DNA of 64,000 bases from positions 3,138-67,137 of IMG/VR virus record IMGVR_UViG_3300037307_000543. The stretch is one strand, 5' to 3'. Below, one piece after another: positions 20,701 to 42,095 of this stretch; position 1 is the first letter of the stretch, and each line of letters begins with the position of its first letter. Position numbers and translations under genes: made by a program. This stretch comes from a virus. The notes under the pieces were generated by a model. That model was given only the letters and a program-made list of their open reading frames with translations. It ran no database searches and had not been told where the DNA came from.

Positions 20701-21768
20701 CTACAAGATAGCCAGCTCTGGCATATCATAAAACGCCAACGCCAATGCGTCTGCCCCGTCCGGAGATTCTCCAAGTTCTTTCTTGATCGTAAGTTTATCC
20801 ACTATCCTATAAAGCCCCCCATCTGAACTCGGTTTGAACTTAGTGTACGCAACCTGTTTAGCAAGCCTTTTATCGCTCGGCAATGAAATCATTCCTTCTC
20901 TGAACCGCTCCTGAAGGACAAAATACATCTCGGCACGTTGGTTAAGACATCTCAGCGAAGGATTTCTCGGACGCTCGTTAAAGGCTACACGAGTAAGGGT
21001 TACTTCTCGATCCATTTCAATTTCTTCTAACCTGGAAGCTATAGCTACACCAAGCCCTCCGGTTCTATCCAGCACGCACTCCTCTACTCCATACTCCTCA
21101 AATGCTCTGCACATAAGACCAACAACTTCCATCGGATCTCTATTAGGGTGCCACTGAACGTCAACCACATGAGGACCATGCCTGATCACAAAACAAGACG
21201 CGTCTCCGGCTCCAGTCCCAAAATCCGCTCCCATAACGACTTTGGTATCATCCATGAGAAGCTCTGGAAAGTCATTAAGAAAAATCGGCTCACATGTCCT
21301 TCCCCTGCGCTCAAGTGGATCTTCCTCATCCCATTCCTCTTCGCTATCTAAAAGCTCGTTAGGATTGATGCCATCGAATTTTCCAGAGCTTGTGTCATCG
21401 TCAAACTCAAGATCTTTGATACTGATCTTATCAACTATCATTGGCTCCGCTTCTTCAGCAGTTAGCGGAGCGTACTTCTTGTTGATCTCTTCCGCATCAT
21501 AGTACGAAAAATCCGAAGCCTTCTTAAGTTCTTCCTTAATTACATCAATATCCCACTCTGGAGCGGAGAAATCCTCACACGCGGCACGCATGAGATCAAT
21601 CGTTTCGTTAATAAGCTCTTTCTTTTTCTTAAAAAGAATCTTGGATTTCTCGGCGCTGTAAAGCTGATCAGCGATTGTTCTCAGTCTGGGAGCCTGCTCG
21701 GCATCGTAGGAAATCTTTGAAAGGAACAACAGAACAAGCTGAGTAAAGGTAAGTGGCTTATCAGACAA
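20701..21768 (-). CDS. terL: Terminase large subunit, stand-alone nuclease (RNase H-like) domain with N-terminal extension
   Basis: VMGADFGTGAGDASCFVIRHG, VLDRTGGLGVAIASRL, NQRAEMYF, IKKELGESPDGADALALAF. Confidence 0.88.
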   Translation of the reverse strand: MSDKPLTFTQLVLLFLSKISYDAEQAPRLRTIADQLYSAEKSKILFKKKKELINETIDLMRAACEDFSAPEWDIDVIKEELKKASDFSYYDAEEINKKYAPLTAEEAEPMIVDKISIKDLEFDDDTSSGKFDGINPNELLDSEEEWDEEDPLERRGRTCEPIFLNDFPELLMDDTKVVMGADFGTGAGDASCFVIRHGPHVVDVQWHPNRDPMEVVGLMCRAFEEYGVEECVLDRTGGLGVAIASRLEEIEMDREVTLTRVAFNERPRNPSLRCLNQRAEMYFVLQERFREGMISLPSDKRLAKQVAYTKFKPSSDGGLYRIVDKLTIKKELGESPDGADALALAFYDMPELAIL

Positions 21769-22335
21769 TTATTGAGCCTCGAACAGAGAAATCACTCGCA
21801 CCTTGCGATTCGTTCCACAATGAAGGCCAATCGTGCCTCTCAGTTTCCAGTCCGCTTTCCTGAAGATAGGAACGATCAGATCAAGCCACACGAGAAAACC
21901 TCCAGGCTTACAAACCGCGCGAGCTTCTCTTAGCACAATTCTCTTGTTTGGCAAGGGATAACCGTACTTCTCCGCATCAGCTTTCGAGTACGGCGGATCA
22001 GCAATAATGAGATCAAACGAATCGGGCGCAAAATACTCAGAAAGACTCTCTGCACAACCAACGAAATCTGGACGAAGGTCAAGATTAATATCAAACGTAA
22101 CTTCATCTTTCTCCTTCTCAACTACTCCGCTGAATAAGTGCAAAACAGATTCTGCTTTGGGAAACAGCGCTCTGATTCGTTTCAAATATGATGGAGGATA
22201 TTCTCCATGGAAATCATATTTGCGTTTATAGTAATTCCCCACCCACCAGTAGCCAGCAATAACTCCTTTATCATCAATTAAGCATTTTGGGTAATTCGGA
22301 AAAGTCTTACAATAATTATTGATATCAATCATCAA
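21769..22335 (-). CDS. Orphan amino-(N6A/N4C) DNA methyltransferase
   Basis: VLHLFSG SAM-binding motif and DLIIADPPY. Confidence 0.75.
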   Translation of the reverse strand: MMIDINNYCKTFPNYPKCLIDDKGVIAGYWWVGNYYKRKYDFHGEYPPSYLKRIRALFPKAESVLHLFSGVVEKEKDEVTFDINLDLRPDFVGCAESLSEYFAPDSFDLIIADPPYSKADAEKYGYPLPNKRIVLREARAVCKPGGFLVWLDLIVPIFRKADWKLRGTIGLHCGTNRKVRVISLFEAQ

Positions 22336-22583
22336 TGACTCCCGAGAATATTCTTGCTCACGAACATTGAAATGTGCCCGCAGCTAGGGCATACGCGAAA
22401 AAAGACCGACTTGCTTTCAACATCCGCAAGCACATCAAAGTCGTACGTCTTCTCGAATACCTCATGAAGAATGTTTCTCCGCTCAGTAACGAGCTTCCTG
22501 AACTCCACAACCGGGATCAGCACTCCATAGTTGTAGAGATCGACTCCTTCGTTGATCTCGCCGCTACAGCACGGACATTTCAT
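22332..22583 (-). CDS. Small zinc-ribbon protein
   Basis: CPCC...CPSCG. Confidence 0.55.
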   Translation of the reverse strand: MKCPCCSGEINEGVDLYNYGVLIPVVEFRKLVTERRNILHEVFEKTYDFDVLADVESKSVFFRVCPSCGHISMFVSKNILGSH

Positions 22584-22586
22584 CTC

Positions 22587-22790
22587 TCATTCTCCAGGAT
22601 GCGGTTCATAGGGGTCAAGCCGCCCGCCCATTTTCTCCAATAACTCAAGTTTCCTTCTCTCGATGTCTCGTTCAATATTAATTTGTTCCAGTTCTCTAGC
22701 GCTCCACCTCTCGTACTCTTCCGGACACAGGCCCTTCAGAAGATGGAGTAATATTCTCTCTATCCTGCTCAACCTTTCTCTATCGTTCAT
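22587..22790 (-). CDS. Hypothetical protein
   Basis: ORF with a GAGG ribosome-binding site. Confidence 0.55.
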   Translation of the reverse strand: MNDRERLSRIERILLHLLKGLCPEEYERWSARELEQINIERDIERRKLELLEKMGGRLDPYEPHPGE

Positions 22791-22803
22791 GATTTCCTCT
22801 TTT

Positions 22804-22835
22804 AGGTCATGAAGCTAAAAATAGCTTCATGACCT
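22804..22835. repeat. Dispersed palindrome copy 2
   Basis: AGGTCATGAAGCTA-AAAA-TAGCTTCATGACCT. Confidence 0.85.
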
Positions 22836-23000
22836 TCCAAAATTGGCCCGCCAGCAATTCCAACCTGAATAACCGTCCTCTGTAGCGAGTCTGGTGCGTC
22901 CTTGGTTGTTCCCTTCTGCAAACCAGCAGCGGGCCGTATTGTAGATTTTTTCATAGGTCTCAATCGCTTCATTTAATATACCTATTAAAGATATAGAAAC

Positions 23001-23681
23001 CTATTTCATATCTGAAGAATATAAAAATATCTGCTTATGTCTAACTTGTTTACTATTTCTAAAAATTTCAGCCATCTCGCTTATAGAGCGCCCCTTTCTA
23101 AAATGATACGATATTATACAACCAGATACTCCAAAAAATTTTGCCCAATCCTTAAGAATCATGCTGTTCCCTTCATGCTCTATCCAAAAATTGGTTCTTC
23201 TGTTTCTGGCCTGTTCTTTTGAAGTCGCCCATTTGCAATTTCCTGGAGAGTAATATCCGTTGTTATCTATTCTTTCTATCGACATTCCTTTTGGACATGG
23301 CCCCATGTCCTCATAAAAATTTTCAAATGACTTAAGCCAACGATCACAGACCTTAATGCCCCTTGCACCATAGTGACCATAGTATTTGCTATTTTCATTA
23401 TAACATCTCTTGATCATAGAAGACCACACATTATATTCTTTAGTAGTTAAGTTATCTCTAGCATGACCGTGTTTATAATTGACTTTTGCACAAATTTTAG
23501 ACGCAATCTCTTTATGCAAGCACCCACAGCTTTGCGTATAGCCAGCTACCAAATTTCCTCCATAAACAACCTTTTCCGTGCCACAAACACACTTGCACAA
23601 CCAACGACCAGATCCGCTATAAGAAAGAACTAGCAATCTTCCAAATCTTTTACCATTTAAGTCAATGAGTTTTGCCATCAA
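23001..23681 (-). CDS. HNH-family homing-endonuclease-like protein (paralog 2)
   Basis: FGRLLV, CKCVCG, SCGC, YGARGIKVCDRW, SIERIDNNGYYSPGNCKWAT. Confidence 0.8.
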   Translation of the reverse strand: MMAKLIDLNGKRFGRLLVLSYSGSGRWLCKCVCGTEKVVYGGNLVAGYTQSCGCLHKEIASKICAKVNYKHGHARDNLTTKEYNVWSSMIKRCYNENSKYYGHYGARGIKVCDRWLKSFENFYEDMGPCPKGMSIERIDNNGYYSPGNCKWATSKEQARNRRTNFWIEHEGNSMILKDWAKFFGVSGCIISYHFRKGRSISEMAEIFRNSKQVRHKQIFLYSSDMK

Positions 23682-24358
23682 TATCCTCTATCTTCATTCA
23701 TTTCGGTACTGACTCGTCCATTTTGCCATATTCCCTCATACAAATCATTTTCTATACCAGACAAATAGAAGAAGGCAACAGAAGCTATTCTTGCTCTTCT
23801 CTCAATAAAAACTGGCACAGAAGACGCGTTCGACAATCCAAAAGTAAGAATTCCAGAAAAATTTGGATGAACACTGCTCGTTATTAAATTTAAGCCACAT
23901 CTAAAAAGAGTTGTTCTTGAAGACACAAAGGCCCTTATCATAGAGGGAATGCTCAACACCTCAACAGTGGTAACTAAAAAATATTTCATAGGAAATATCG
24001 CATATCCAACTTTTCCATCTTCAGTCTGCATTAAATCGCACTTCCTAATTTCAGGAGTCCTCCTCTTCTCAATTCCAATCAGAGCAGGAACAATAAAACC
24101 TTGTTGAGCTATCTGATTTCGATCCAAAGATGGATTCAAAATCTTGGTAACGGTGGGAAATGGTTCATAACACTCATCAAGCCTCAGATCAAAGCTTCCA
24201 CCCTCTATGAAGTCCACATCAGGAGCATCGACAAGATTTCCATCATTGTCATAGATCCCAACAAGCGGCTTGAGAGACTCGATTCCCTTTTCGTCTCTAA
24301 TAATTACTCCATCGCGGATATAGCTTCTGATCTGATCGCTGGTAAGGCTAGTCATCAC
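23678..24358 (-). CDS. dcd: dCTP deaminase (trimeric dUTPase/dCTP deaminase fold)
   Basis: GSFDLRL, LVTTVEVLSIP, SSRTTLFRCGL, VHPNFSGILTFGLSN, RIASVAF. Confidence 0.8.
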   Translation of the reverse strand: MMTSLTSDQIRSYIRDGVIIRDEKGIESLKPLVGIYDNDGNLVDAPDVDFIEGGSFDLRLDECYEPFPTVTKILNPSLDRNQIAQQGFIVPALIGIEKRRTPEIRKCDLMQTEDGKVGYAIFPMKYFLVTTVEVLSIPSMIRAFVSSRTTLFRCGLNLITSSVHPNFSGILTFGLSNASSVPVFIERRARIASVAFFYLSGIENDLYEGIWQNGRVSTEMNEDRGY

Positions 24359-24528
24359 AAAATCTCCTCATCCAAATCAGCCTCATCGTGAATCCTCCTC
24401 ATCATGATACCCACAACCCCAACAGACGCAGAAAGAGTAAGAATCGCGGCAGTTAGTTTCTTTGCGTCATCATTATTAAATATGAATCTATCAAGATACG
24501 CCATATAAGCCTCAAATGATTCATCCAT
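24355..24528 (-). CDS. Small hypothetical protein (57 aa)
   Basis: Manual translation MDESFEAYMAYLDRF...; AGGAG ribosome-binding site; overlaps the dcd start. Confidence 0.5.
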   Translation of the reverse strand: MDESFEAYMAYLDRFIFNNDDAKKLTAAILTLSASVGVVGIMMRRIHDEADLDEEIL

Positions 24529-24625
24529 TTTCTCTCCTTTTAGTTTGGGCGGGCCGAAGCCCGCCCTTCCAGAGAAGCGTAAAACCCGGTGTAAAATAAG
24601 TGCCCTTTATAGCAAGGGGACTGTT

Positions 24626-25276
24626 CTATAGTCCTTCACCATTCCACTTTACCCGTTTACTGTTCCGAAAGATCTCGACTATCTCATCGAAAGAGTGGCC
24701 TTTTTTGAGATGATAGCAAACAGAACTTATATTCACTTGAAAAAGCCTTACCCAATCTTCAAGAATCATTTTCTTTCCACCATAGGAAAACCAATGATTT
24801 CTTCTCGTGTTTCGATTTTGCTCATAATTGGTTGCCCATTTGCAATTTCCTGGGGAGTAATATCCGTTGTTATCTATTCTTTCTATCGACATTTCTTTTG
24901 GACGTGGCCCCATATCTTCGTAGAAGTTTTCAAATGACTTAAGCCAATGATCGCAAACCTTGATGCCTCTTGCACCGTAAATACGATATTTATTATTGTT
25001 CTTATTATAACATCGGTCTTTTATTCCTACATAAGTGCTATATTCCCTACTCTTATAAAGTCCATGTTTAATTCTTATAGGAGACTTGTTTTCTGCTTTT
25101 AAGCAACCACACGACTTGGTTTCTCCTCTTATAAGCTGATCGCGACGAACAATTGTCATGCCCCCGCAATCACACTTGCAAACCCAAAACGAATGGCCAC
25201 GTTTGTTACTACCGCGATACGATAGAACAATTAAGCGACCAAATCTCTTTTCGACCAAATCAATCAATCTTGACAT
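24626..25276 (-). CDS. HNH-family homing-endonuclease-like protein (paralog 3)
   Basis: Same motif set as paralog 2; shares a 143-bp near-identical DNA block with it. Confidence 0.8.
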   Translation of the reverse strand: MSRLIDLVEKRFGRLIVLSYRGSNKRGHSFWVCKCDCGGMTIVRRDQLIRGETKSCGCLKAENKSPIRIKHGLYKSREYSTYVGIKDRCYNKNNNKYRIYGARGIKVCDHWLKSFENFYEDMGPRPKEMSIERIDNNGYYSPGNCKWATNYEQNRNTRRNHWFSYGGKKMILEDWVRLFQVNISSVCYHLKKGHSFDEIVEIFRNSKRVKWNGEGL

Positions 25277-25327
25277 ATCATTTTTTATCTAGGAGGACAG
25301 ACTCACTCCATCCTCCTCGATACCTCA

Positions 25328-27073
25328 TCAGAACTCCACCAGCACCGAGCCCTGCAAGCCAAAGATGGTTGACAGATCTCTATTCGGATCTATCCTCACT
25401 CCTTCACCCTGGCCCGTAGAAAGCGGATTCGGAATCGTGTTGAGAGTAGAGAGATCCTGAAACGCGTGTTTGAACCATTGCCCAGGCTTCCACCATTCCA
25501 TCCTCATTCCGAACGTAAGCGCCTCCAAAAGCTTCCACTGAAGACCACAGCCGATGGAGTTACCAAGAAAGTTATCGGCTACGACTGGAGCAATTGTCGG
25601 CGCAGAAGAAATCCCGCCCCCATACTGGCCCCATATCGTAGAGTTATTGGAAGCCCTTCTCGAATAGAGAAACGTACCAAAAAGGTTCAAGTTCGACGCT
25701 ATGGCATAATCCAATCTGATCCCAAGCCCAAGATAATCATAAAAGACTGGATAACCAGAAGCGTTATAGCTGTTGTTTCCCGTACCAAAAAACGGTAAAA
25801 CAAAGGCATAAGGATCTACCGCCTGCCATCTGTTGCCAGAAACGGTGTAAAGCTGAAACTTATCATCTACCGGCCTTCCCGTAGAAGTTCCCGTAGCGGC
25901 CGCGAAGTTAAGGGTTCCGTTCGACGTTTGATGCCCAGAAGAGTAAAAGTGAACAAGTGTCGTCTTCAACGGCCCCGCTATCGTCCCCATTTCAACCATC
26001 CACGCGAGAGGTGTACCCGAAATCTGCCTCCCTCCCGTGCGAACAACCGAAATCTTCTGATAGCCAAATTCTCCGTTGAAAAAGAACCCGCCCCTCATGT
26101 ACTTGAGATACGCAGAGAGAGTATGGAAAAAGATGTCACTGTGAATTGGAAAATTCTGTAAATCGGTTCCGTCGCTTCCAGCCCCGCCAGAAATAACTCC
26201 CTCACTAAGCATGGCAAAAGCCGCACCGTTCACATCATCACGCAGGGTCCACGTCGTGAACGGTGTTGCATGTACTCCTCTCCATGCTTGACTGCGAGCA
26301 AGAAACCCAATATCGGCAGACCCATCTCTGTAAATAAGGCCAGCGTACACGTCAAGCTGCTTCTGCTCGGTCCTATCAAATGTAGAAGCAACGGTTAACG
26401 GAGTCCTATCCTTATTCCTTGTATCACCGCGAGAGGAAAATTCTCCCGTATCGGAGAGTACGACAGCAGTCAAAAAGGAAAGAGGACCATAGGGAACCAC
26501 AAGCCGCACAAAATCTGCCCTGTAGTCTCCAATGGTCCATCCAAGGCCGAACTGAAAAGGTGTTCGCCCAATAGAAATCTTCCCCCACGGAATATCCGCA
26601 TCTACCCAGAGCGACCTGACCCCAGGAACCGCGATAGCATTCTCAGGTTCAAGAGTGCGAGAAGAAAGGCGAATATAGCCAGCATACGGCTGTGTATTAA
26701 GCCAGTTGCTACCGCCCACATACTGCCCATTAAGGTCTCCAGAAAAGCCAACTTCGCTATTGACCCTCACGGCCTGATTCACAATAAATTTTGGCCACAA
26801 GACAAGGCGTTGAATCCAAAAAGATCCGTCACTTCCTTTGGAACTCAATCCTTCCGTAAGGAGCACGCCATTAACCGGCCCAGGGAAGCCTATCGTAGTT
26901 TGACCGCTCCCAATCGAACTTTGGGCTGTATCAATATTCCCAAAGAGACTGTTTTTCCCAATTTGGGAAAAGTAAACGTATTTGTTCTCGTATATAACGG
27001 GAACATCGAAAGAAAACGCCATTGCACTTGTCGTCACACAAAGCGCAAGAAACAGAAACAGAAGCTTTTTCAT
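25328..27073 (-). CDS. Outer-membrane beta-barrel (porin-like) protein
   Basis: Sec signal peptide MKKLLFLFLALCVTTSAMA, alternating hydrophobic strands rich in aromatic residues and Gly, C-terminal ...GSVLVEF. Confidence 0.75.
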   Translation of the reverse strand: MKKLLFLFLALCVTTSAMAFSFDVPVIYENKYVYFSQIGKNSLFGNIDTAQSSIGSGQTTIGFPGPVNGVLLTEGLSSKGSDGSFWIQRLVLWPKFIVNQAVRVNSEVGFSGDLNGQYVGGSNWLNTQPYAGYIRLSSRTLEPENAIAVPGVRSLWVDADIPWGKISIGRTPFQFGLGWTIGDYRADFVRLVVPYGPLSFLTAVVLSDTGEFSSRGDTRNKDRTPLTVASTFDRTEQKQLDVYAGLIYRDGSADIGFLARSQAWRGVHATPFTTWTLRDDVNGAAFAMLSEGVISGGAGSDGTDLQNFPIHSDIFFHTLSAYLKYMRGGFFFNGEFGYQKISVVRTGGRQISGTPLAWMVEMGTIAGPLKTTLVHFYSSGHQTSNGTLNFAAATGTSTGRPVDDKFQLYTVSGNRWQAVDPYAFVLPFFGTGNNSYNASGYPVFYDYLGLGIRLDYAIASNLNLFGTFLYSRRASNNSTIWGQYGGGISSAPTIAPVVADNFLGNSIGCGLQWKLLEALTFGMRMEWWKPGQWFKHAFQDLSTLNTIPNPLSTGQGEGVRIDPNRDLSTIFGLQGSVLVEF

Positions 27074-27145
27074 CTATTCCTCCTTAAAAACACACACTAC
27101 CTTTTTCTCAGAAGGCTGCTGGAGCGAGCGTTCATTGATTTTGGC

Positions 27146-27230
27146 CTGAAGCTTTACAATTGCCTTTGAGCCTCTCAACACCTAAAGGTGAAAGATTCCG
27201 GACTTGATTATGCCGCCACATAATCAACCT
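27146..27230 (-). ncRNA. IS200/IS605 right end; 3' part of the omega-RNA plus predicted guide
   Basis: GGAATC-TTTCACCTTTAGGTG-TTGAGAGGC-TCAA matches the typical tnpB right-end layout, ending at 27166. Guide would be AGGCAATTGTAAAGCTTCAG (27165-27146). The 5' boundary is unknown. Confidence 0.65.
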
Positions 27231-28266
27231 CGTGGATCGCTCCGATCCCGACAACGAGAGTGTTGACAGCAGCGTTGATGTCTCTGTCATGTAGAGTTCC
27301 ACACTCTGAACACTTCCATTGTCTTACCGACAAGCCCGCCAATCCTGAAGGACCAGTTAAGGCACCACAAGACGAACAGGTCTTGGTGGAATTATTGCTA
27401 TCAACTTCAACATATTTCCTACGACAAGAACTGCACTTATAGGAAAGCATTCGTTGAAGTTGATAGTGGCCCGAAGAGGCCACCGATTTACCAAATCTCT
27501 TAGAAATGGCTTTTATATTATCTCTACTAAAAACAATTATGGAATTCTCTGAAACTAATCGCCTACTTAATTTGTGATTACGATCCTTCCTCTTGTTAGC
27601 TATCCTTTCATTAATTCTAGCGGTCAATTTTTTATTCTTTCCTCGCTGAGCCTGTCCTAACCTTTTAATTCTCTTCTCAAGTTCCTTCGGGTGTTTTATC
27701 TTCTCCCCCGTTGAAAGAGTTATAAGATGTTTGAATCCTGGATCTATCCCAACAGCCCCATTACCCACTATTGGAATCTCGTTAGGATTAGTGTCAATTA
27801 CCAAACATAGATACCATCCAGAAGCCTTTTTAACAATTCTACCATTCTTGATTTTGCCACCTAGCAAAGTCTGTTTATGAAACCGAGTCTTGCCAACTCC
27901 AGGAATAGAAATGTGGTTATTTGTTGGCGGCCTAAACGGATCGGGAAAATAAATACTATTAAGCTTGTTTCTCTGTCCTTTAAGCCTTGGACTTTTGGTT
28001 CTTTTCTTAAAACAATTAATCCAAGCCAGATAAGCTTGAGACAGAACACCTTGTAAAACATGGCTAGGTATAGCAAGTTTTTTACTATGGTTTGCAAGCA
28101 GATTTTGAAAGTCTTTGGGAGAATGATAAATCTTGTTTTGAGCATCTAACTCTATTTTTCTAATGGCCCAATTCCAAACACCCGTAAGGTTCCATAGCCA
28201 CTCATTAAGTTGAGTTTCTTGTTTACGAGTCAGTCTTAATTTTAATTGTCTCTGAATCATTGGCAT
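27208..28266 (-). mobile_element. tnpB: TnpB-family RNA-guided protein (IS200/IS605-type, no tnpA seen) with atypical RuvC-II
   Basis: QLKLRLTRKQ, VGIDPG (RuvC-I), STKTCSSCG and WKCSECG zinc finger, HDRDINAA (RuvC-III); RuvC-II reads IIVFSRDN instead of IviEdL. Confidence 0.88.
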
Positions 28267-28275
28267 TCTCTTTCA

Positions 28276-28359
28276 CAGAGCATAGAGGAAGCAAGGTCTC
28301 GTAAAAAATACGTTGCTTGTCAGTTCTGCTTCATAAAGTCTTGCTTCCTCTATGCTCTG
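28276..28359. repeat. Perfect 20-bp inverted repeat upstream of tnpB
   Basis: CAGAGCATAGAGGAAGCAAG (28276-28295) and CTTGCTTCCTCTATGCTCTG (28340-28359), 44-nt loop. Confidence 0.85.
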
Positions 28360-28407
28360 GTCTCTATCCCTTTACCACAACCAGTTGCAGGTGTCAAGAA
28401 AAATCGA

Positions 28408-28797
28408 CTACACTTGCTTCTCGATAGCGTCCATGAGCTTCCTAATGTTCTCCATAAGGGGAGACATAAGCCCAACCTCTTCGTTGATCTCGATGAACTT
28501 TTTCATCTTCTCCCACTTACCATCAGAGGAAGAAATGTAAATAGGAGTTCCTACAGGCGGCATTACATCCTTCAGAGACGCGACTTTCGGCTTCTTCTTT
28601 TTGATAATCCTCGCCAGCTCTCCTTTCATCTTGCTCGTAGCCTTTATCAAAGCTGCATCGGCCTCCTTTCTCCTTTTGTACCACCCTTTCATGTACTTGG
28701 ATCTGAACTTCTTCTTGCAATCGGGATCTCCACATTGCTTCTGAAGCTCATTGGGTGTATGAAACACCTTTCTGCAAATCTCACATATTTTTTTCAT
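28408..28797 (-). CDS. Zinc-ribbon/coiled-coil hypothetical protein
   Basis: CEIC...CGDPDC at the N-terminus. Confidence 0.65.
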   Translation of the reverse strand: MKKICEICRKVFHTPNELQKQCGDPDCKKKFRSKYMKGWYKRRKEADAALIKATSKMKGELARIIKKKKPKVASLKDVMPPVGTPIYISSSDGKWEKMKKFIEINEEVGLMSPLMENIRKLMDAIEKQV

Positions 28798-28982
28798 TCC
28801 TGTTCCTCCCTTTCTGGATCGTAAAGTCCTTTCTCGAAAAGTTCGTCGATTGTTTCTCTCATGATAAACACCCTACTTCCGATTTTGAGGTGTTTAATCT
28901 CCCCACGAGAGGTTCTTTGCCTCCACCAAGACACACTCATCCTGGTTTCCATTGCCGCTTCCGGTACGGTAAGAAGCTCCAT
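28794..28982 (-). CDS. Excisionase/AlpA-like helix-turn-helix protein
   Basis: LLTVPEAAMETRMSVSWWRQRTSRGEIKHLKIGSRVFI. Confidence 0.75.
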   Translation of the reverse strand: MELLTVPEAAMETRMSVSWWRQRTSRGEIKHLKIGSRVFIMRETIDELFEKGLYDPEREEQE

Positions 28983-33711: not shown

Positions 33712-33865
33712 TTTAGTTTCTCCAATCTGACTTTTGATTCCTTAATTTCCCTTTAGCAGTGCACTCTGCATCGCAAAAGCGACGCCTTTTGAAAGCGGCA
33801 AGAGGCTCCGTATAACAGAGACGCTATTCATAAACGGGTTGGCCATTTTCTGATCCTTCACGCAC

Positions 33866-33894
33866 AAGATACAATATCCATTCTCAAGTGTCAA
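33866..33894 (-). promoter_or_regulatory. sigma70-type promoter
   Basis: T-tract then TTGACA-17 bp-TATCTT. Confidence 0.65.
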
Positions 33895-33914
33895 GAAAAA
33901 AGATTGAAGTTATA

Positions 33915-33952
33915 GAAGAAGAAAGCCTGACGCTTTCGTGGAGCGTCAGGCT
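33915..33952 (-). terminator. Rho-independent terminator
   Basis: AGCCTGACGCT-7 nt-AGCGTCAGGCT followed by TTCTTCTT on the minus strand. Confidence 0.75.
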
Positions 33953-34019
33953 CTAAGGAAGGAGTTTTAGCAAGGGCAACATCTCACAATCGAAAGTGTC
34001 TTATAACGAAGACGGTTTG

Positions 34020-35006
34020 TCAAGAAGGAAATTCTGCATCCGGATACTTCTTAATAAAGTCCGACACCTCTGAATTCGGCACATACACCTTCTCTCCATT
34101 AACCTCAAGCACCACATACCTTCCTTTCCAATTCGCCGGAACGGTTAAAGCGTTCTCTACGCTCCACCCGCTCCTTAACCTACTGACAATCAGCTCATAG
34201 TTTAATCCTGTCTTCTTCGCCCACCACTTCATAGAGGCTGTCTTTCCGTTATGAGTTATCGTCTTTGCACTTCTAGGAATATAAGGCTTCGTTAGCGCTT
34301 TTTCCACAGTCCATCCGTTCCTTATTCTGGAGCGCAGCGCTTCCGGATGTATTCCTACCTTCTTTGCCCAACTCCCTATTGGGGCCGTTTCTCCCTTATA
34401 TGTAATTGTCTCTGTTGGCATCCTTTCTTGACAAAGACGGAACAATTTATCTTCCGGCCAATTCCTGTTTAATCTATAATAAATAACATAAGGTGAAATT
34501 CCTACAAGCTCGGCAACAAGAGAAACCGGAAGAAGTTTTCCATTATACTCAACTAACCTGTTAGTTCTTTTATTTCGACATTGCTCTTTCTGGGTGGCCC
34601 ATCTGCAATTGCCAGGCTCATAATCTCCGTCATTATCAATCCTCTCTATCGCATATCCTTCCGGTCTTGGCCCCATATCTTCGCAAAATGCCTCAAATGA
34701 TTTTTTCCATCTATCGCACATCTTTATTCCACGACCGCCATAGTTTTTGTAAGCTCTATTGCCCTTGCTATAACAGCGTTGTTTTATTCCTTTCCATATA
34801 GACCAGAGAGGCCCCTTTTTCTCTTCCATCATTTTCCTTTTTTTTGAGTTGTAGCATGTTCTACATGACTTGATTCCACTCTTAAGGGCAAGACGAGTTA
34901 CTTCAATTTCTTTTCCACAAGAGCATTTACACAGATAGGTTGTTTCTTCAAGTCGCCTTAACACCTTTAGCGAGCCTACTGTAGTCCCTTCGTATGTTTT
35001 GACCAT
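34020..35006 (-). CDS. HNH-family homing-endonuclease-like protein (paralog 4) with three C-terminal DNA-binding repeats
   Basis: YGGRGIKMCDRW, IERIDNDGDYEPGNCRWAT; repeated ITY/HxG...W...G...LRSRI..GWTVE.AL units. Confidence 0.8.
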   Translation of the reverse strand: MVKTYEGTTVGSLKVLRRLEETTYLCKCSCGKEIEVTRLALKSGIKSCRTCYNSKKRKMMEEKKGPLWSIWKGIKQRCYSKGNRAYKNYGGRGIKMCDRWKKSFEAFCEDMGPRPEGYAIERIDNDGDYEPGNCRWATQKEQCRNKRTNRLVEYNGKLLPVSLVAELVGISPYVIYYRLNRNWPEDKLFRLCQERMPTETITYKGETAPIGSWAKKVGIHPEALRSRIRNGWTVEKALTKPYIPRSAKTITHNGKTASMKWWAKKTGLNYELIVSRLRSGWSVENALTVPANWKGRYVVLEVNGEKVYVPNSEVSDFIKKYPDAEFPS

Positions 35007-35169
35007 AATAATTATTCAATACAGTATGTTGTTTCAGGTGTCAAGAATAAAATTTCCTAGTATAAAAATTTCTCGACGTGGGTACGACCAATTGGCATAC
35101 CCCCCTTTCGCGCCACACCCACGGGATTAAAAGAAAAACCCCCCCTTCCTTAACAATATCAATCGAGAT

Positions 35170-35195
35170 TCATGAAGCTATTTTTAGCTTCATGA
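35170..35195. repeat. Dispersed palindrome copy 3
   Basis: TCATGAAGCTA-TTTT-TAGCTTCATGA. Confidence 0.85.
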
Positions 35196-35301
35196 TATCC
35201 TCAATGATATTGCGGCTTGTACAAAAATATGCCCGCAGGATTTCTCCCTGCAGGCTCCCATTGGGAAATGTTAGATTTGGTTCACTCCAGAGAGTAGCAC
35301 G

Positions 35302-35676
35302 TCACTTGAGCCTTGTCCAGTCTGCTCTCTTTACGCTCTCCCTCTGCTTCCTGTCTAGCTCTTTGATTCTTTCCTTGCGTAGCCTTTGTTTCTCGTCATC
35401 TGTTTTCAACCTGGACGAGGTGGGCCGAGAGGGACAAAGCTCTCCTTCTTGCTCTTCAGCTCTTTCCTTATCAACCTTGTCATCCATTGCCCAAGATTCT
35501 CTACGTAAGGAAACATTTTCCTGATCTCCTCTTTCTCTTCCTCGCTCAGCTCCGCAAGGGTCTCCATCTATAATTCTCCTTCTACAATACGCGCTCACAG
35601 ATTTGTGCTCCTGGAAGGCTTTGAGCCTTACTTGTTCATATTCCTCCACGCTCATAACTACGCTTATGATCTTCAT
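35302..35676 (-). CDS. Hypothetical protein (possible ribbon-helix-helix N-terminus)
   Basis: KIISVVMSVEEYEQVRLKAFQEHKSVSAYCRR. Confidence 0.45.
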   Translation of the reverse strand: MKIISVVMSVEEYEQVRLKAFQEHKSVSAYCRRRIIDGDPCGAERGRERGDQENVSLRRESWAMDDKVDKERAEEQEGELCPSRPTSSRLKTDDEKQRLRKERIKELDRKQRESVKRADWTRLK

Positions 35677-36012
35677 AACTTCATAATAATCTATCCCTGG
35701 AGAGAAGTCAAGCTGTACAAAGTGAAGCTCCCCGAGCTGCCACTGGAGAGCTTCGTTTGTATTGGGCGTTGCACCCTGTGGTGGGACTGAAGATGTTGGG
35801 TAGGTTTTGTTTTGGGTAGGGCGGCGGGAGGCACTTCCTCCCCTTTTTTTACCGCAGGGCTATCCTACTCTATACTCCTTTTCCCAACAATAGTTTTGTT
35901 TTGTGTTTTAGCTATCTCTATCCAGTAGCTCATTATATAGCCTACCTTCTCAAACTCCTTTGCTAGATAGGTTCATCACATTAACAAATACTTAGTACTC
36001 ATTAAGGATTTA

Positions 36013-36267
36013 TTAAGTTGATTTCCTAACCGGCGGGATCTGAGGAGTTTTCTTTTCCTCATAACACCACGCGCTCACCGGCCCGCGCTCTCGCTCCGTT
36101 ATGTTCGCAATTTGAACATCAGCTCCAACAGTATCCAAGAAAGCACGCACCGCTTCTATCCACTCTGGATTTAGCCCCGAAATAGATTTCAACTCATTAA
36201 GAATTTGTGACTTCAAGAGTCGAGCGTTTGAGGCTGCTTTGAAACAGTCAGAGCTAATATGATACAT
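36013..36267 (-). CDS. Hypothetical protein
   Basis: ORF track; GGAGAG ribosome-binding site. Confidence 0.55.
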   Translation of the reverse strand: MYHISSDCFKAASNARLLKSQILNELKSISGLNPEWIEAVRAFLDTVGADVQIANITERERGPVSAWCYEEKKTPQIPPVRKST

Positions 36268-37288
36268 GCCTCTCTCCTTTCATTTCCTCCAACGCTTCAT
36301 TCTTTCAACTCCACAATCGCCGGATTGACTACTTCTTCTTCTTCACTCGCTCCATAGCGTGCCATTTCCTGAGTTCCTCTCCATGAATCCATGCTTGAGA
36401 AAGGATACCCACCGCCATCACATACATGAATCCAGTTATTCCTTCAGTGTCCGCATCATGTGATGCCTGTTTCGCTATGTCCTTCAGCTCTTCTCCCTTG
36501 TTTATCCTTTCTTCCATAAGGTTCGCCCACCGTGCTGCATAGCTGAAGCACGCATAGCCATACGGATCTTGGTTGTTTCTTAGTCCTTCTTCCCAATCCT
36601 TTTTTCCTCAATAATAGAAAATTTTTCAATCATTTTCCTTCCCTTTTCTCCAGTACAGGACTCGTCGTCTTAACAAATACTTAATTCTTGTTAAGTGTGG
36701 CTTAATCTTCTTCTTTTCCCAAGACAACTACTCTTCCGCTTCTATATGGCTGTAGTGATCGTCCCCACATAGTTGGTTCCAAATGGATAATGATCGTATC
36801 TCATTATCTTCCACCATTCCCACCAGTGGACCGCGTACCCTTCTGTGGCATACCTTTTTATTTCCGCCCCCATCCTCATTTCAGGAGCAGCTTCACACAC
36901 ATAATAAATGAGACTTTTAATCATCTTCTCTGTTTCCTGATTTCCTGCTCTATGTCTCTTTCATCCCTTTTCTGTATTTCCTTCAGCAGCTTCTCGACTT
37001 CCTGCTCGTGCTTTACACAGAGGTGATAGCTGCACCCTGTTGAAATTCCACATACCTCGCAAATCCTTTCTTCAGGAAATATTCTCAAAATTTCCTGTCC
37101 ACAGAATCATCTCTTTATCGGTCATCTCTTCTCTCCTGTTCTCAGCTCATACATTGCGCTGGTAGATAGCTCTTCAGTTTGTCTGTGATTCTTGAGAGCT
37201 GTTCTGATCCAGTCCAACATCTCAGTCTCTTTCAGATTCGTTTTCATCCATTCCCATAGCTCCTCATCTATCACAACAGGCAATATTT

Positions 37289-37516
37289 TCATTTGTACAC
37301 CACCCTTGCGTATTTCGTTCCCGTTACCCTTTTTACCTTTTCTATTTTTCCAAGAGCTTCCTCAAGATCGTTGATAAACAAGTCAGTCACTTTGAGCCCT
37401 TTGCTGAAATTGATTAACGATGCCTTACCTATCCCTATGGCTTTGCCAAATACACCCCAGGACATATCGTTTTTCAGATCCATCATTTTCTTTCTCAACT
37501 CATCATACTTATCCAT
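37289..37516 (-). CDS. XRE/Cro-like helix-turn-helix protein
   Basis: MSWGVFGKAIGIGKASLINFSKG; AGGAGG ribosome-binding site. Confidence 0.6.
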   Translation of the reverse strand: MDKYDELRKKMMDLKNDMSWGVFGKAIGIGKASLINFSKGLKVTDLFINDLEEALGKIEKVKRVTGTKYARVVYK

Positions 37517-37527
37517 TTGCTTCCTCC

Positions 37528-38130
37528 TTATACATATCCTTCCAGCTTTGCTTTCTTCATAAACTCAGCAAATATCTCTTTCGGTGTTGCATCTTCCCAT
37601 TCGGTCTTTATTTCTTGACCGATAAACATACCTACTCTCTCTTTCAGTTTTTCCATTCTCTCCTTGTTGTTTCTTCCTTCCATATCAAAGTCTCTTGCTT
37701 TGTTCATTGCTCCTTCATGTTTGCCACGCGCCTTGAAGAAGAGAATTCTCATTGTGTGTTGGAGAAGATTCTGGAATATCCTGATCAGTTTATCCATCTC
37801 CTTCACATATCCTTCAGCATCATACTCGCTTTCCCTTTCCGTAAGCCTTCTCTTTGAATTGTAAAGCAACTTCAACTGACTCTTTATTCCTTGGTCCAGT
37901 CTCCAGTCAGCTTTGTACTCGGTGCCGCGAGCAAGCATCGTCCTGTCAAACCAGTACAGGTCATAGATCGCATTGATAGCCTTATGAACATCATCAGACA
38001 GTGAGTTCATTTTGTCGAAGTTCTTCGACTTGAACGCGTTAGCGAACGCCTTCTGTACGCTTGGGATCTTCTCTACAACCTCAAGCGTCTTCTCCGCGTA
38101 CACCACTGGAGATGGTGGAAGATGTATCAT
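37528..38130 (-). CDS. Helical hypothetical protein
   Basis: 200-aa ORF with a ribosome-binding site. Confidence 0.65.
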   Translation of the reverse strand: MIHLPPSPVVYAEKTLEVVEKIPSVQKAFANAFKSKNFDKMNSLSDDVHKAINAIYDLYWFDRTMLARGTEYKADWRLDQGIKSQLKLLYNSKRRLTERESEYDAEGYVKEMDKLIRIFQNLLQHTMRILFFKARGKHEGAMNKARDFDMEGRNNKERMEKLKERVGMFIGQEIKTEWEDATPKEIFAEFMKKAKLEGYV

Positions 38131-38515
38131 ATCTCCAATCCTCTTGCGTGGTTGTTATAAGATTCACTTGTCTCCATTGGTCAGCCTTTGCTTGAGCTTC
38201 TTCGTCGCTTTTCGCCCAGAAGTATCCAGAGTCTTTCGTGAACTCATCTTCTGAGTTATGATCTTCAGTGGGAATTATTCTTTCAGGAGAAAGGCTGAAC
38301 GGATTTGCTGAAGGCCACCCAAAGTCGATATGGTAAAATATCCAGCCTTCTTGAACTTTGGCGATGATGCGCTGAAGGTTTTCGTTGTCATCTTTTTTCA
38401 CCCCAAGGTCGGCTCCATACATCCCTTTGAGAAGCTTGGAATACTTCAACGCTTCGGGGCGCTTGAAGAACTTTGCGTAGACGTAGCCACTCTCTTTATC
38501 ATAAACTTGCCACAT
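38081..38515 (-). CDS. Hypothetical protein
   Basis: ORF track; AGGAGGAG ribosome-binding site. Confidence 0.55.
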   Translation of the reverse strand: MWQVYDKESGYVYAKFFKRPEALKYSKLLKGMYGADLGVKKDDNENLQRIIAKVQEGWIFYHIDFGWPSANPFSLSPERIIPTEDHNSEDEFTKDSGYFWAKSDEEAQAKADQWRQVNLITTTQEDWRYDTSSTISSGVRGEDA

Positions 38516-38688
38516 TTACTCTCCTCCTTTTGGTTTACCTAATACAGCCGCCCACTCATCGGGATCAAGGTCAGTTTTGAAGTTCTTGTTTTCCTCTTCC
38601 TCGTACTCGAAGCACACCGGGCATAGACCATAGAAACGATCCCATTCTTTTTTGCTGATTTCCGTCTCGCAATTTCGGCACCTTAATA

Positions 38689-38910
38689 TCATTGGATTTT
38701 TTCGTTCATGAAGCTATTTTTAGCTTCATGATCTAACCACTCCAGGACCAAGCTTCTCAACTCTTGCTGACATTTCGGGCATAGCCGAAAATAGTACCCG
38801 TCCATAGACTGCCGCTCTTCGACCTTCAGGGAGATGCTTCGCAGATGGTCTCGTGCTCCGCATCTAATACACTCCTTTGTGTCAAGCCTATGGACGGGTA
38901 AATCGGTCAT
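38689..38910 (-). CDS. Small zinc-finger protein containing palindrome copy 4
   Basis: CIRCG...CPKC. Confidence 0.6.
   Translation of the reverse strand: MTDLPVHRLDTKECIRCGARDHLRSISLKVEERQSMDGYYFRLCPKCQQELRSLVLEWLDHEAKNSFMNEKIQ
38706..38731. repeat. Dispersed palindrome copy 4 (intragenic)
   Basis: TCATGAAGCTA-TTTT-TAGCTTCATGA, encoding HEAKNSFM on the minus strand. Confidence 0.85.
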
Positions 38911-39200
38911 GCGTTCATGCCTGCTTTCAGCGGGCTTGATACACGGAAAGAGATCGCCTTGCGAGCAGGCACTTGATGCACCTTCCCATCGATAGGACTC
39001 TTGAGAGTCCTACCCTTGCGCTGTTTCACCTTGAAGTCTCCAAGCCCTCTGAACTGTACGTCACCGCCTGCTTTGAGCACGTCAATGGCGGTATCCAGAA
39101 ACAGATTCACCACACCCTTGATATCGGCTTTGGAGAATCCTTCCGACTTGGAATATACCATCTCGATCAAATCGCCGGTTGCTACTTTTTTCGCAGCCAT
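38907..39200 (-). CDS. hup: HU/IHF-family DNA-binding protein
   Basis: VQFRGLGDFKVKQRKGRTLKSP...VPARKAISFRVS; start at ATG 39200 after GGAGGG. Confidence 0.88.
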   Translation of the reverse strand: MAAKKVATGDLIEMVYSKSEGFSKADIKGVVNLFLDTAIDVLKAGGDVQFRGLGDFKVKQRKGRTLKSPIDGKVHQVPARKAISFRVSSPLKAGMNA

Positions 39201-39267
39201 GTTTCCCTCCAGAAGATATTGAAATTTGAACACTCTCCGGATAACATAAGTAAAATCAGAATGCAAG

Positions 39268-39891
39268 TTATTTTTTTCTGAAAATCCAAAACACAGACCC
39301 CCACTTCCTCGCGTGAAGCTGGTGCTTATGTCTCATCGTTGGTCTATTGTTCACCGATATCACAAAGAGCTTATCGATAGGATCGAACTTAACTTCTCTT
39401 GCCCATTCTAAAATATCGTGTTCGATCCAGTGTTGTTTTCCGCTCGATATGAAGTTCTGACATTTTACGATAAACAGTCCTTTTTCTACCAACACCCATC
39501 GAATCTTATATATTCCATTCAAATAAGCCTCATAAATCGCTTTCTCTCCACAAACCGATTCAAGATTATACTGCCGTTCGATCATGTCGGTTCTCTTCGC
39601 CGTTGAGCTGTTCCCGTACGGTGGATCGAAGACAACGCAATCAAACGACTCTCTCCGAAAAGGGAGAGCCTCGTAGTCGGCCTGGAGGTCAAGGAAGGGG
39701 AAAGGATAGCGGTCCATCCGTACGACCGTGTACGGACCTGTCACGCGTTTCCAGAAGACGCCCTTAGAATAGGTAGCATCCAAGATGATCGCGTCAGCCG
39801 GAACATAGAACTCTATGATCTCCCTGAACGCGTCCGGTTGATCGAGATACTCATGGTTCGCTCCACAGAGCATTGTAGAGTAGAGAGTCAC
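39268..39891 (-). CDS. Orphan amino-DNA methyltransferase
   Basis: ILDATYSKG and FDCVVFDPPY. Confidence 0.75.
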   Translation of the reverse strand: MTLYSTMLCGANHEYLDQPDAFREIIEFYVPADAIILDATYSKGVFWKRVTGPYTVVRMDRYPFPFLDLQADYEALPFRRESFDCVVFDPPYGNSSTAKRTDMIERQYNLESVCGEKAIYEAYLNGIYKIRWVLVEKGLFIVKCQNFISSGKQHWIEHDILEWAREVKFDPIDKLFVISVNNRPTMRHKHQLHARKWGSVFWIFRKK

Positions 39892-40169
39892 TCAACCACA
39901 TCCTTCGCATAAACATCAATATCATCGTTTCTTGGTATCATAACAACTCTCTTCTCTCTCATTTGAATAGTCGCTATCGCCCCCCATAGCCCAGTCGCCT
40001 TGTTAATTGTTTCCCACCCTTTTCCATTCCAAAAGGCAACTTCATTGTCTTTGAAAATACGGTATGACCGGACCGTTTCTTTCCTTTTCAGTGCGATCTC
40101 TTTCAAGCACGCCATACAGAGATCGATTCTCTCAGAAAATTCTGTGCCACAAAGCTTGCAAACAGGCAT
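39888..40169 (-). CDS. Small zinc-binding hypothetical protein
   Basis: CKLCG...CMAC. Confidence 0.55.
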   Translation of the reverse strand: MPVCKLCGTEFSERIDLCMACLKEIALKRKETVRSYRIFKDNEVAFWNGKGWETINKATGLWGAIATIQMREKRVVMIPRNDDIDVYAKDVVE

Positions 40170-40573
40170 TACAACATCCCCCTCCGCAAAAGCAACTCTC
40201 TTCTGATCTCAAGATAGTGACTGAGAGGAATGGCAATCCAAGTCTCTTGTTTGCCCAACGTCCCTCTCTTAAACACTACCGCAGGCTCACAGCCGTACTC
40301 TGTATTCTCTGTAGCCTGAGCAAGAGCTTTCCACATGTTGATGCTCTTCATGTTCTTGCATTCAATGGAAAGCCCAACCTTCGCTCTGCCCGTTGAGGAA
40401 AGCTTTATATCTACCCCAGTCTCGCACCCTACGGGAGTTCTGATCTCGTCCTCAGTAAGCTCAAACGCATCTTTGACAAGCTCCATCACTCGCTTCTGAA
40501 AGCTTCTCCCTTTCTGAATCCTGCTTCTCACGTTTGCTGCCATAGTCATCCTCCGACAACCAACCTGTATCAA
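40169..40573 (-). CDS. PD-(D/E)xK Holliday-junction resolvase-like nuclease
   Basis: KGRSFQKRV, GVDI, SIECKN, PAVVFKR. Confidence 0.78.
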   Translation of the reverse strand: MIQVGCRRMTMAANVRSRIQKGRSFQKRVMELVKDAFELTEDEIRTPVGCETGVDIKLSSTGRAKVGLSIECKNMKSINMWKALAQATENTEYGCEPAVVFKRGTLGKQETWIAIPLSHYLEIRRELLLRRGML

Positions 40574-41072
40574 GGCTTAGTTCAAGCTTCTCGCGATGGT
40601 CATGAAAATCAATGAAGTCCATTCCAGCTATCGCCTTCAGAATAGAGGCAGAAAATCTCCTGGTAGAGATCACTTTGAACTTCTTACCCATTGCTCGAAA
40701 CGCTTCAAGAATACAGTCAAAGTCGCCATCTCCAGTCACGATGATAGCAAGATCATAATATGGATTGTTCAGGCAGATATCTCTGAGCATAACCATATCG
40801 AGATTTGACTTGTGAAACATGTCTCCGTTTTCCAGTTTCACTTCCTTCACTGGCTTAGAGACAATCTGATAGCCGAAATCAACGAGACGAGCAAAGAACG
40901 CTTTCTTCTCAGAAGTATCATCTTTGTACGATCCGATATAATAAGCTGCTCTTTCCAGGTCTCCAAATTGTTTACAAAACTTCAAAAGCTTTTCAAAGTC
41001 GAGTCTCCATCCGAGATCGTCCTTCTGAAGATAAAACAAGTTGTCACCATCAATGTAGAGATGAACAATCAT
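40461..41072 (-). CDS. NYN/LabA (PIN-like) domain ribonuclease
   Basis: LYIDGDNL, KSNLDMVM..D, IVTGDGDF, GKKFKVIS. Confidence 0.82.
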   Translation of the reverse strand: MIVHLYIDGDNLFYLQKDDLGWRLDFEKLLKFCKQFGDLERAAYYIGSYKDDTSEKKAFFARLVDFGYQIVSKPVKEVKLENGDMFHKSNLDMVMLRDICLNNPYYDLAIIVTGDGDFDCILEAFRAMGKKFKVISTRRFSASILKAIAGMDFIDFHDHREKLELSLDTGWLSEDDYGSKREKQDSEREKLSEASDGACQRCV

Positions 41073-41099
41073 TCTTCTTTCCTTTCTTTGTTAGCCAAT

Positions 41100-42095
41100 T
41101 CATTCTTTTGATCCTGTGGAAAGCTTCCTAATGTCCTCTGCGCTTACTACTTCTTTCCCTAGCTGCGCCTTCTTCAAGATGTTGCGAAGGAATATCCCTT
41201 TCGCAATCGCCGCCGCAATGCTCTCATCGTCTATGAGCTGATATTCAGAGGTCTTCGGAAACTCGCCATAAATCCTCGCCACAACCCACGGACTTCCCGG
41301 CCCATGTCTCCTGAGCTGTTGATTGATCCAAGCCATTGAGCAGAGCCCTGGATATGGTTCGGGTTCGATAGCGCAGTACTTTCCCTCTTTATCAACGCCA
41401 ATGTTTGGAGACTCGTATGAGCTGATCTTGATAATGTGGTATCCGGGTACGGCTCTCGTATGAGTCTCGTGGAAATAAGTATTCGGTTCAATCGGATTCC
41501 CAATGAGCAACACCTTGTTGTCTTTTGAAGTAAGAAGCCCTTCAGCAGAATCATAGATCGACTTCGGAATACCGCAAGCTTCATCGAATACCACAAGCAT
41601 ATTGCCCGCATGGATACCTTGAAACGCTTGCTCTTCGTCAGTCGTAAACCCGATTGCATAGTGTTCAGGATCATCGGGATCTCTTACCTTCATTGTCTTC
41701 AGACACTCACCCGCTCTCGCTACATTCTGCCTTAGCCTTATGTGAAGCTTCTCAATCGCTGACCAAAGAATCTCTTTTACCTGTCGGCCCGTAGGTGCAG
41801 TCGTAACGACGCGAGAACCGGGAAAACAGGTAAAATACCAGAGAACAAGTGCGGCAGTGCCGTAAGATTTCCCTACGCCATGCCCGCTTCTGACAGTCGT
41901 GCGCTGGTTCGCAGCAACCGCCCTCATAAATTCCCGTTGTCTCTCCCACGTGCTGAGACCAAGAAATCTCTTAGACCACACATCGGGAAATCTCTGGTAA
42001 AGCGCCATTAGGTCTTGAACGAATCCGTGTTCTTCCCATATCTGGTTCTCTATCTCATATGGATCCTTGATCTTTTTTGCTTCAGAAAACGACAT
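41100..42095 (-). CDS. terL: Terminase large subunit, stand-alone ATPase domain
   Basis: WERQRE, VRSGHGVGKS (Walker A), VTTAPTGRQV, VVFDEACGI (Walker B), LLIGNP, ARIYGEFP; start at 42095 (TAATG coupling). Confidence 0.9.
   Translation of the reverse strand: MSFSEAKKIKDPYEIENQIWEEHGFVQDLMALYQRFPDVWSKRFLGLSTWERQREFMRAVAANQRTTVRSGHGVGKSYGTAALVLWYFTCFPGSRVVTTAPTGRQVKEILWSAIEKLHIRLRQNVARAGECLKTMKVRDPDDPEHYAIGFTTDEEQAFQGIHAGNMLVVFDEACGIPKSIYDSAEGLLTSKDNKVLLIGNPIEPNTYFHETHTRAVPGYHIIKISSYESPNIGVDKEGKYCAIEPEPYPGLCSMAWINQQLRRHGPGSPWVVARIYGEFPKTSEYQLIDDESIAAAIAKGIFLRNILKKAQLGKEVVSAEDIRKLSTGSKE

Follow-up and report, generated by a model that had tools for sequence, protein, structure and literature searches.

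A putative two-gene large terminase in an uncultured freshwater phage

The large terminase subunit (TerL) is a signature enzyme of the tailed phages and the herpesviruses and is treated as a single polypeptide chain. Here we describe a phage in which its ATPase and nuclease domains are specified by two genes that lie far apart. The stretch analysed (henceforth the window) is 64,000 nucleotides long and corresponds to bases 3138-67137 of the linear, 67,871-base IMG/VR record IMGVR_UViG_3300037307_000543. The single sequencing run that contains this DNA is a freshwater metagenome, which makes its owner an uncultured freshwater phage. CheckV places the completeness of the record at 71%, so that about 29% of the genome is absent from it.

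The two terminase genes and the interval between them

The first gene (Table 1) encodes a protein, P0001, that matches the TerL profile phrog_2 over positions 266-470 (E 1.6e-23) and is 38% identical over 287 amino acids (aa) to residues 16-286 of a 509-aa one-chain TerL. A PDB sequence search with the ATPase profile returned zero matches, and the match to the Pfam family Terminase_6N lies under the cut-off (15.5 vs 22 bits). The AlphaFold model of the protein (mean predicted local distance difference test score, pLDDT, 87.9) finds its best structural matches in the ATPase domains of T4 gp17 (Foldseek, 2o0j, E 3e-9) and P74-26 TerL (4znk, TMt 0.70), and both its profile and its fold are those of a TerL ATPase. 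The characteristic elements of the additional strand, catalytic E (ASCE) P-loop ATPases of this family are all present, namely a Q-motif (W57, Q60), Walker A (G82, K83, S84), Walker B with the catalytic glutamate (D178, E179) and the C-motif region (G206, N207, P208). They are invariant in 7/7 members of a clade of ATPase-only proteins (43-68% identity range, BLASTP), and most of these residues are also invariant in a 47-sequence alignment that includes one-chain TerLs. The chain continues through the inter-domain linker into a conserved tail of 31 residues with the pattern KG..LR......G...S.E.I, and L294, A301, K306, G307, R311 and G320 are invariant in this linker and tail. The stop codon is followed by a ribosome-binding site and the next gene, as in ordinary genes. 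Translation probably begins at M8 (at 42095), because a database copy (P0011) and its closest homologue (P0012) start there.

The second gene encodes P0002, residues 154-349 of which match phrog_2 positions 474-592 (E 6e-9), and residues 189-347 of which correspond to residues 293-452 in an alignment with that 509-aa TerL. Its residues 160-349 adopt in prediction the RNase H-like fold of TerL nucleases, resembling those of Sf6, E217 and G20c (Foldseek: Sf6 gp2 4ife and 5c10, E ~1e-9, TMt 0.67; E217 8dkr; G20c 5m1o); a PDB sequence search with the nuclease profile gave weak matches to TerL nucleases only. The three conserved acidic residues typical of these enzymes, which are putative metal ligands, are found as D182, D234 and D337, and together with D340 they are invariant in 7 nuclease-only homologues. 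The domain is preceded by a conserved segment that spans 21 residues in the clade alignment and, further upstream, by an N-terminal extension for which PHROG and Pfam scans gave zero family matches; residues 1-150 are modelled with pLDDT <50. The TTG start of the gene directly abuts the TAA stop of an upstream methyltransferase gene. With their catalytic residues kept, the ATPase and the nuclease both look active.

The two matches abut in phrog_2 coordinates (259-470 and 474-592), and together the two proteins align end to end with the one 509-aa TerL. On the DNA, however, the ATPase stop and the nuclease start are separated by 19,331 bp with about 40 predicted open reading frames (ORFs). A six-frame phrog_2 search of the whole 67.9-kb record gave no TerL match beyond the two halves, and PHROG scans of the large unassigned ORFs of the window gave none either. 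In place of the canonical single polypeptide there are separate ORFs, each with its own start and stop, and the same holds in relatives. These results uphold what the original prediction had read from the letters: an ATPase gene with the full set of motifs that ends after the linker, a nuclease gene with an intact three-Asp domain, a separation of about 19 kb with dozens of genes in between, and breaks that carry no intein or intron hallmarks (no Rfam intron and no intein family; see below). The absence of a full-length terL elsewhere, for which it had asked confirmation, holds within the 67.9-kb record.

Table 1. Coordinates, strand and main attributes of the features discussed, in window positions
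Feature	Position	Strand	Remarks
TerL ATPase-only gene	41100..42095	-	331 aa from M8; longest ORF starts at 42116, 338 aa
Inter-domain linker and clade-specific C-terminal tail of the ATPase protein	41103..41249	-	residues 290-338; predicted docking element for the nuclease
TerL nuclease-only gene	20701..21768	-	355 aa
RNase H-like TerL nuclease domain	20722..21246	-	residues 175-349
Conserved pre-domain segment of the nuclease protein	21253..21303	-	residues 156-172; G156, R157 and P161 invariant; partly in the predicted interface
N-terminal extension of the nuclease protein	21304..21768	-	residues 1-155; helical, acidic, poorly conserved
Interval between the halves	21769..41099	.	19.3 kb, ~40 ORFs
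Double helix-turn-helix (HTH) protein	20030..20308	-	92 aa; two genes downstream of the nuclease gene; weak small-terminase match, phrog_141, E 1.5e-5
Helicase gene	57864-59282	.	PHROG scan; followed by DnaB-like helicase and primase
DNA polymerase gene	49802-53185	.	PHROG scan; followed by UvsX-like recombinase
SbcD-like gene	44166-45320	-	PHROG scan; upstream of the SbcC-like gene
SbcC-like gene	42262-44166	-	immediately upstream of the ATPase gene
Portal gene fused to Mu F-like domain	12335-14740	-	PHROG scan; followed by large head genes
Major capsid gene	1333-2667	.	PHROG scan

Nearly all genes of the window are on the - strand, so that transcription runs from high toward low coordinates. 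In this direction the replication and recombination genes listed in Table 1 lead up to the ATPase gene, downstream of which PHROG scans identify, in order, an NYN-like gene, RusA, a methyltransferase and then the remaining ORFs of the interval. The nuclease gene is followed by small genes, an HNH gene, a 761-aa gene and then the portal gene. The nuclease gene thus precedes the portal gene by 6 kb in transcriptional order, where terL is normally found; of the two halves it alone has this placement, the ATPase half lying beside SbcCD. Judging from the gene order, the part of the genome absent from the record most likely comprises the genes for the tail and for lysis that would come after the capsid gene.

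The interval itself carries two methyltransferases, three HNH paralogues, a dCTP-deaminase-like gene, a 581-aa gene, a TnpB-like transposase, an HU-like DNA-binding protein, RusA, the NYN-like gene and many small ORFs. Counting the one beyond the nuclease gene, there are four paralogous HNH endonuclease genes (phrog_374, phrog_3377), all on the - strand, at 19150-20025, 23001-23681, 24626-25276 and 34020-35006; two of these paralogues have a stretch of 184 nt in common that is 85% identical. Within the interval, a 26-nt motif built around the core TCAnGTGTCAAGAAnAAA, which may be a phage promoter or operator, occurs in five copies (28379-28404, 29016-29041, 30469-30494, 33876-33901 and 35026-35051). 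Further, a 28-nt AT-rich palindrome, TTCATGAAGCTATTTTTAGCTTCATGAT, is present at 22806-22833, 35169-35196 and 38705-38732; two of the copies have the same sequence, and one is located shortly before the operon containing the methyltransferase and nuclease genes. A match to the Y RNA-like family YrlA at 29158-29267 (-) falls below threshold (30.1 bits vs a gathering threshold of 69, E 0.006). On the other side of the nuclease gene, the 92-aa double-HTH protein is a weak candidate for a small-terminase-like recognition subunit, because relatives have an HTH protein (87-97 aa) at the same place near the nuclease gene.

Relatives and origin of the split

The same arrangement is found in a 117,981-base ENA contig from another sample, which carries the nuclease homologue P0007 and of which 40 kb were examined. 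In this 118-kb relative a portal-Mu F gene is preceded by a nuclease-only gene, and 28.5 kb separate the latter from the end of a 338-aa ATPase gene that lies upstream on the same strand and has an NYN gene after it. The C-terminal half of the 338-aa protein is 51% identical to P0001, tail included. The conserved synteny for which the original prediction had proposed to look is thus present, the order common to the window and this relative being ATPase, NYN, a 200-aa gene, deaminase-like gene, nuclease and portal. Of the interval genes, only the NYN, 200-aa and deaminase-like genes are shared by the two.

A second relative, G001 (IMGVR_UViG_3300037504_000875, 35,188 bases), has a nuclease-only frame of 309 aa upstream of its portal gene. 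No ATPase half was found across the whole 35-kb record, and hence none lies in the 14 kb of it upstream of the nuclease gene. The G001 nuclease-only gene (20061-20924) was missed by the six-frame phrog_2 search and recovered by a clade-specific profile (A1) at E 4e-77. Three genomes thus have the nuclease gene before the portal gene, where terL normally sits. On the ATPase side, the SbcD/SbcC neighbourhood upstream of the gene (42262..45320 in the window) is also kept in relatives, and in two further contigs an ATPase-only gene comes after RecA, SbcD and SbcC and before an NYN gene.

Homologues of both kinds occur in other samples: the ATPase-only proteins are 302-332 aa long at 43-68% identity, and the nuclease-only proteins 327-354 aa, plus one of 220 aa, at 39-50% identity (BLASTP for both). 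A scan of IMG/VR for close relatives with P0002 peptides gave no match, and a profile scan of the same database yielded mostly one-chain TerLs at ~34% identity. Among isolated phages, Arthrobacter phage Amigo and the others matched by the ATPase have an ordinary one-chain terL, and none in the collection searched shows this TerL split.

To place the two halves phylogenetically, trees were derived for each domain. In the ATPase-domain tree the seven ATPase-only proteins are monophyletic (support 0.996) and nested among one-chain TerLs, with a 443-aa one-chain TerL, P0019, as their sister. In the nuclease-domain tree the eight nuclease-only proteins are likewise monophyletic (support 0.997), with P0019 nearby. 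As each half thus forms one clade among one-chain TerLs, the phylogenies point to a single old fission of terL. We also searched 1.84 billion representatives of 50% identity clusters with the nuclease profile. The 27 top-ranking representatives, extending down to E 5e-51, are 220-450 aa long, which is too short for a one-chain TerL plus extension, and the first full-length TerL appears only at rank 28. Ten of the 27, taken from among the longer ones, were checked against the PHROGs, and in each case the match to phrog_2 is confined to its nuclease part; the N-terminal extensions of these proteins reach ~260 aa. Given that the 27 short proteins rank first and that the ten checked are nuclease only, this family has evidently diversified.

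The simplest course of events would begin with a break in an ancestral one-chain terL at the hinge that joins its ATPase and nuclease domains, after which the halves would have become able to dock in trans. The gap, situated at the border of the replication and head modules, would then have expanded and become a variable region populated by accessory and mobile genes. Its size is 19.3 kb here, 28.5 kb in the 118-kb relative and at least 14 kb in G001, and its contents are nearly all different between the window and the 118-kb relative; it appears to be a place where accessory and mobile genes collect. By this account, the ATPase gene would have come to end a replication and recombination module (SbcD, SbcC, ATPase, NYN, RusA), and the nuclease gene would have kept the place of terL.

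Other TerLs are also found in pieces. In three IMG/VR contigs, TerLs closely similar to a 426-aa one-chain TerL (L010) are interrupted at this same boundary between the domains, around L010 residues 242-249, with the halves adjacent to each other (L008:2036-3479, L022:2010-3842 and L033:6996-9561; gaps of ~185 nt, ~560 nt and ~1.3 kb). A fourth contig has a 188-aa nuclease-only ORF (L081:10004-10567); the 10 kb on each side of it contain no L010-like ATPase, and this may be another distant split.

Predicted docking of the halves and competing explanations

Complex prediction for the ATPase and nuclease proteins gave an ipSAE of 0.79 (runs of 0.79, 0.78 and 0.80), with all three controls at 0.00; the runs have at least 39% of contacts in common, and the partner pLDDT is at least 65. 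On the ATPase side, the predicted interface is formed by the linker and tail (residues 290-336), and on the nuclease side by residues 160-172, 200-201 and 282-323, i.e., the pre-domain segment and the body of the domain, where it covers two helices and the beta-hairpin 311-322. The clade-specific segments added at the two new termini, the ATPase tail and the nuclease pre-domain segment, therefore both lie within the modelled interface. In one-chain relatives only ~16 residues lead from the conserved alanines of the linker to the first strand of the nuclease, and the split proteins are longer here. About 150 residues of the nuclease N-terminal extension remain outside the interface. The original prediction had proposed assembly in trans through the new terminal extensions; of this, the assembly itself is supported by a complex prediction that passes its controls, and the ATPase tail and pre-domain segment do take part, but since most of the N-terminal extension lies outside, the proposed role of the extensions is only partly borne out. 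Its further suggestion, that DNA cutting might in this way be uncoupled from translocation, is conjectural.

We consider it likely that the two genes constitute a genuine two-gene large terminase, produced by an old fission at the hinge, whose halves dock in trans. Based on the models, we infer that the halves would assemble physically and together carry out packaging and headful or end cutting. The ATPase protein would supply the translocating motor, and its linker helix and tail (290-336) would dock non-covalently on a surface of the nuclease protein made up of the pre-domain segment 160-172, helices 277-290 and 300-308 and the beta-hairpin 311-322. The state of the ATPase is relayed to the nuclease in T4 gp17 along a track made up of the hinge, subdomain II of the ATPase and a beta-hairpin of the nuclease domain (PMC3074133). 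Docking of the kind modelled would rebuild the hinge and hairpin contacts that carry these inter-domain signals, and the predicted contacts resemble the gp17 track held together without a covalent bond.

Several points weigh against this interpretation. The complex score may reflect the memory that the prediction model has of one-chain TerL structures, and the calibration of the ipSAE mark, which 58 of 80 solved complexes attain and 2 of 110 mismatched pairs do as well, is only rough in this case, as shallow alignments were used. Invariant residues are not clearly enriched in the interface: 7 of the 37 fall within its 31 residues, where ~6 are expected by chance. The domains of T4 gp17 are not known to restore packaging when expressed apart. 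Also, at ~71% completeness (CheckV) there is room for an intact terL in the absent part of the record. Finally, regulation of the T4 nuclease relies on communication between covalently linked domains (PMC3074133).

A more specific version of the two-gene terminase, which we regard as speculative, is that the ATPase is expressed together with the replication and recombination genes, and the nuclease late with the head genes, so that the two activities would be separated in time and amount. The ATPase might then also serve as a translocase with SbcCD and RusA on branched concatemers, and the acidic N-terminal extension might restrain the nuclease until docking. Were this so, the motor would work with the nuclease attached in trans only, which would count against the covalent hinge being required for translocation.

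The location of the genes in different modules, with several palindromic elements between them, makes their separate expression plausible, and it is conceivable, if rather unlikely, that the halves are uncoupled and form no stable complex. The ATPase alone would then be the motor, as in phi29-type systems, and the nuclease would cut concatemers independently, perhaps recruited via its N-terminal extension to the portal, to DNA or to a small-terminase-like protein. That the ~150-aa extension is present throughout the clade and yet lies outside the predicted ATPase interface fits such a scheme, as does the HTH protein conserved beside the nuclease gene. However, the complex prediction passes with every control at 0.00, and the ATPase retains a full linker and a conserved extra tail, which would have no obvious purpose without docking.

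A linear record that is 71% complete (CheckV) also raises the question of whether an intact one-chain terL lies in the unsequenced ~29%, the two genes being paralogous remnants or repurposed copies; the ATPase, which sits among recombination genes, could for example act with SbcCD and RusA in recombination. We view this as improbable: the nuclease gene holds the usual terL place before the portal in three genomes, the catalytic residues of both halves are kept over deep divergence, both halves trace to the same neighbourhood of one-chain TerLs, and the absent part, as deduced above, is most likely made up of tail and lysis genes.

There is very little likelihood that the halves are rejoined into a one-chain TerL by excision of the 19 kb, RNA trans-splicing or a split intein. 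Atypical split inteins were originally discovered in TerL genes from metagenomes, and the HNH endonucleases and the TnpB-like gene within the interval would be in keeping with such an element. More generally, terL genes are known to host introns and inteins (PMC12880540, PMC7156551). At the gathering threshold, however, Rfam gave no match over the 64 kb, and so no intron family; when matches at E up to 1 in 20000-43000 were admitted, there were four weak ones, none to an intron family, and no ribozyme was seen to flank the putative exons. Intein and Hint families of Pfam gave no match to either protein at E up to 1. The new termini lack Hint blocks: the ATPase tail has no Cys, and the nuclease pre-domain segment reads GR...P in all members and has no His-Asn plus nucleophile. 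As for a skin-type excised element, the two break regions have no exact repeat longer than 9 nt in common, no more than expected by chance (shuffle mean 9.2), and no att-like repeat; the PHROG scan found no serine or tyrosine recombinase among the larger interval ORFs; and the Logan contigs of the source run contain no joined ATPase-nuclease form. Against any rejoining, moreover, the ORF ends and the added segments are conserved as parts of separate genes.

Misassembly or chimerism of the contig, which the original prediction had named as a circumstance that would undo it, is effectively ruled out because both genes recur, in unchanged order and with a larger gap between them, in the 118-kb relative, which was assembled independently from another sample; the Logan contigs of the source run cover the interval but break at HNH repeats, and only there (23257-23277, 24855-25568), so that they do not fully bridge it, but one of 27.8 kb runs from 25568 past the ATPase gene at an even depth of ~7-9x, and the most that the HNH repeats could do is exchange the 23.3-24.9 kb segment.

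Relation to known terminases and implications

Compared to the one-chain TerLs (T4 gp17, Sf6 gp2, P74-26/G20c, D6E), the two proteins have the same ATPase fold and motifs, an RNase H-like nuclease with the acidic triad, the same order of domains, a nuclease gene placed before the portal gene and similar predicted linker and hairpin contacts. They differ from these in being two polypeptides whose genes are 19-28 kb apart in different modules, with an added conserved segment at each new terminus and a ~150-aa extension of the nuclease. Interrupted terminase genes form a second group of comparison. The herpesvirus terminase gene is spliced. Introns or inteins interrupt terL in the Jug phages (PMC12880540) and cyanophage Mic1 (PMC7156551). 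As in all of these, the coding sequence is broken here and homing endonuclease genes are nearby; however, their pieces lie side by side or almost so and are spliced back into a single chain, whereas in the phage described here ordinary gene ends are ~40 ORFs apart and are free of ribozyme or intein features.

The phi29-type ATPase gp16 offers a third parallel, being a packaging motor protein without an active nuclease in the same chain. The DNA packaged by phage phi29 is protein-primed and of unit length, and no terminase nuclease is required, whereas the phage studied here keeps an intact one as a separate gene. No phi29 gp16 entry is present among the 50 structural matches listed for the ATPase model, the best being T4 and P74-26 TerL. 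Our literature searches, which covered few subscription journals, found no published unspliced two-gene TerL, only the intron and intein cases. Within the literature as searched, the arrangement is a variant of a known enzyme that is new in form, and it is of relevance to both the study of packaging motors and the annotation of phage genomes.

For annotation, the consequence is that phage detection, completeness estimates and phylogenies based on TerL will miss or mis-score genomes of this kind; generic TerL profiles can overlook the split halves, as the failure of the six-frame phrog_2 search on G001 illustrates. In the T4 model of the packaging motor, motions around a covalent inter-domain hinge account for both the movement of DNA and the control of the nuclease (PMC3074133). 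A diversified phage clade in which this hinge is cut and the halves are encoded 19-28 kb apart is a natural test of the one-chain requirement. If the two proteins do package DNA together, coupling of the motor and the nuclease would need no covalent link, and the elements by which they dock could be mapped.

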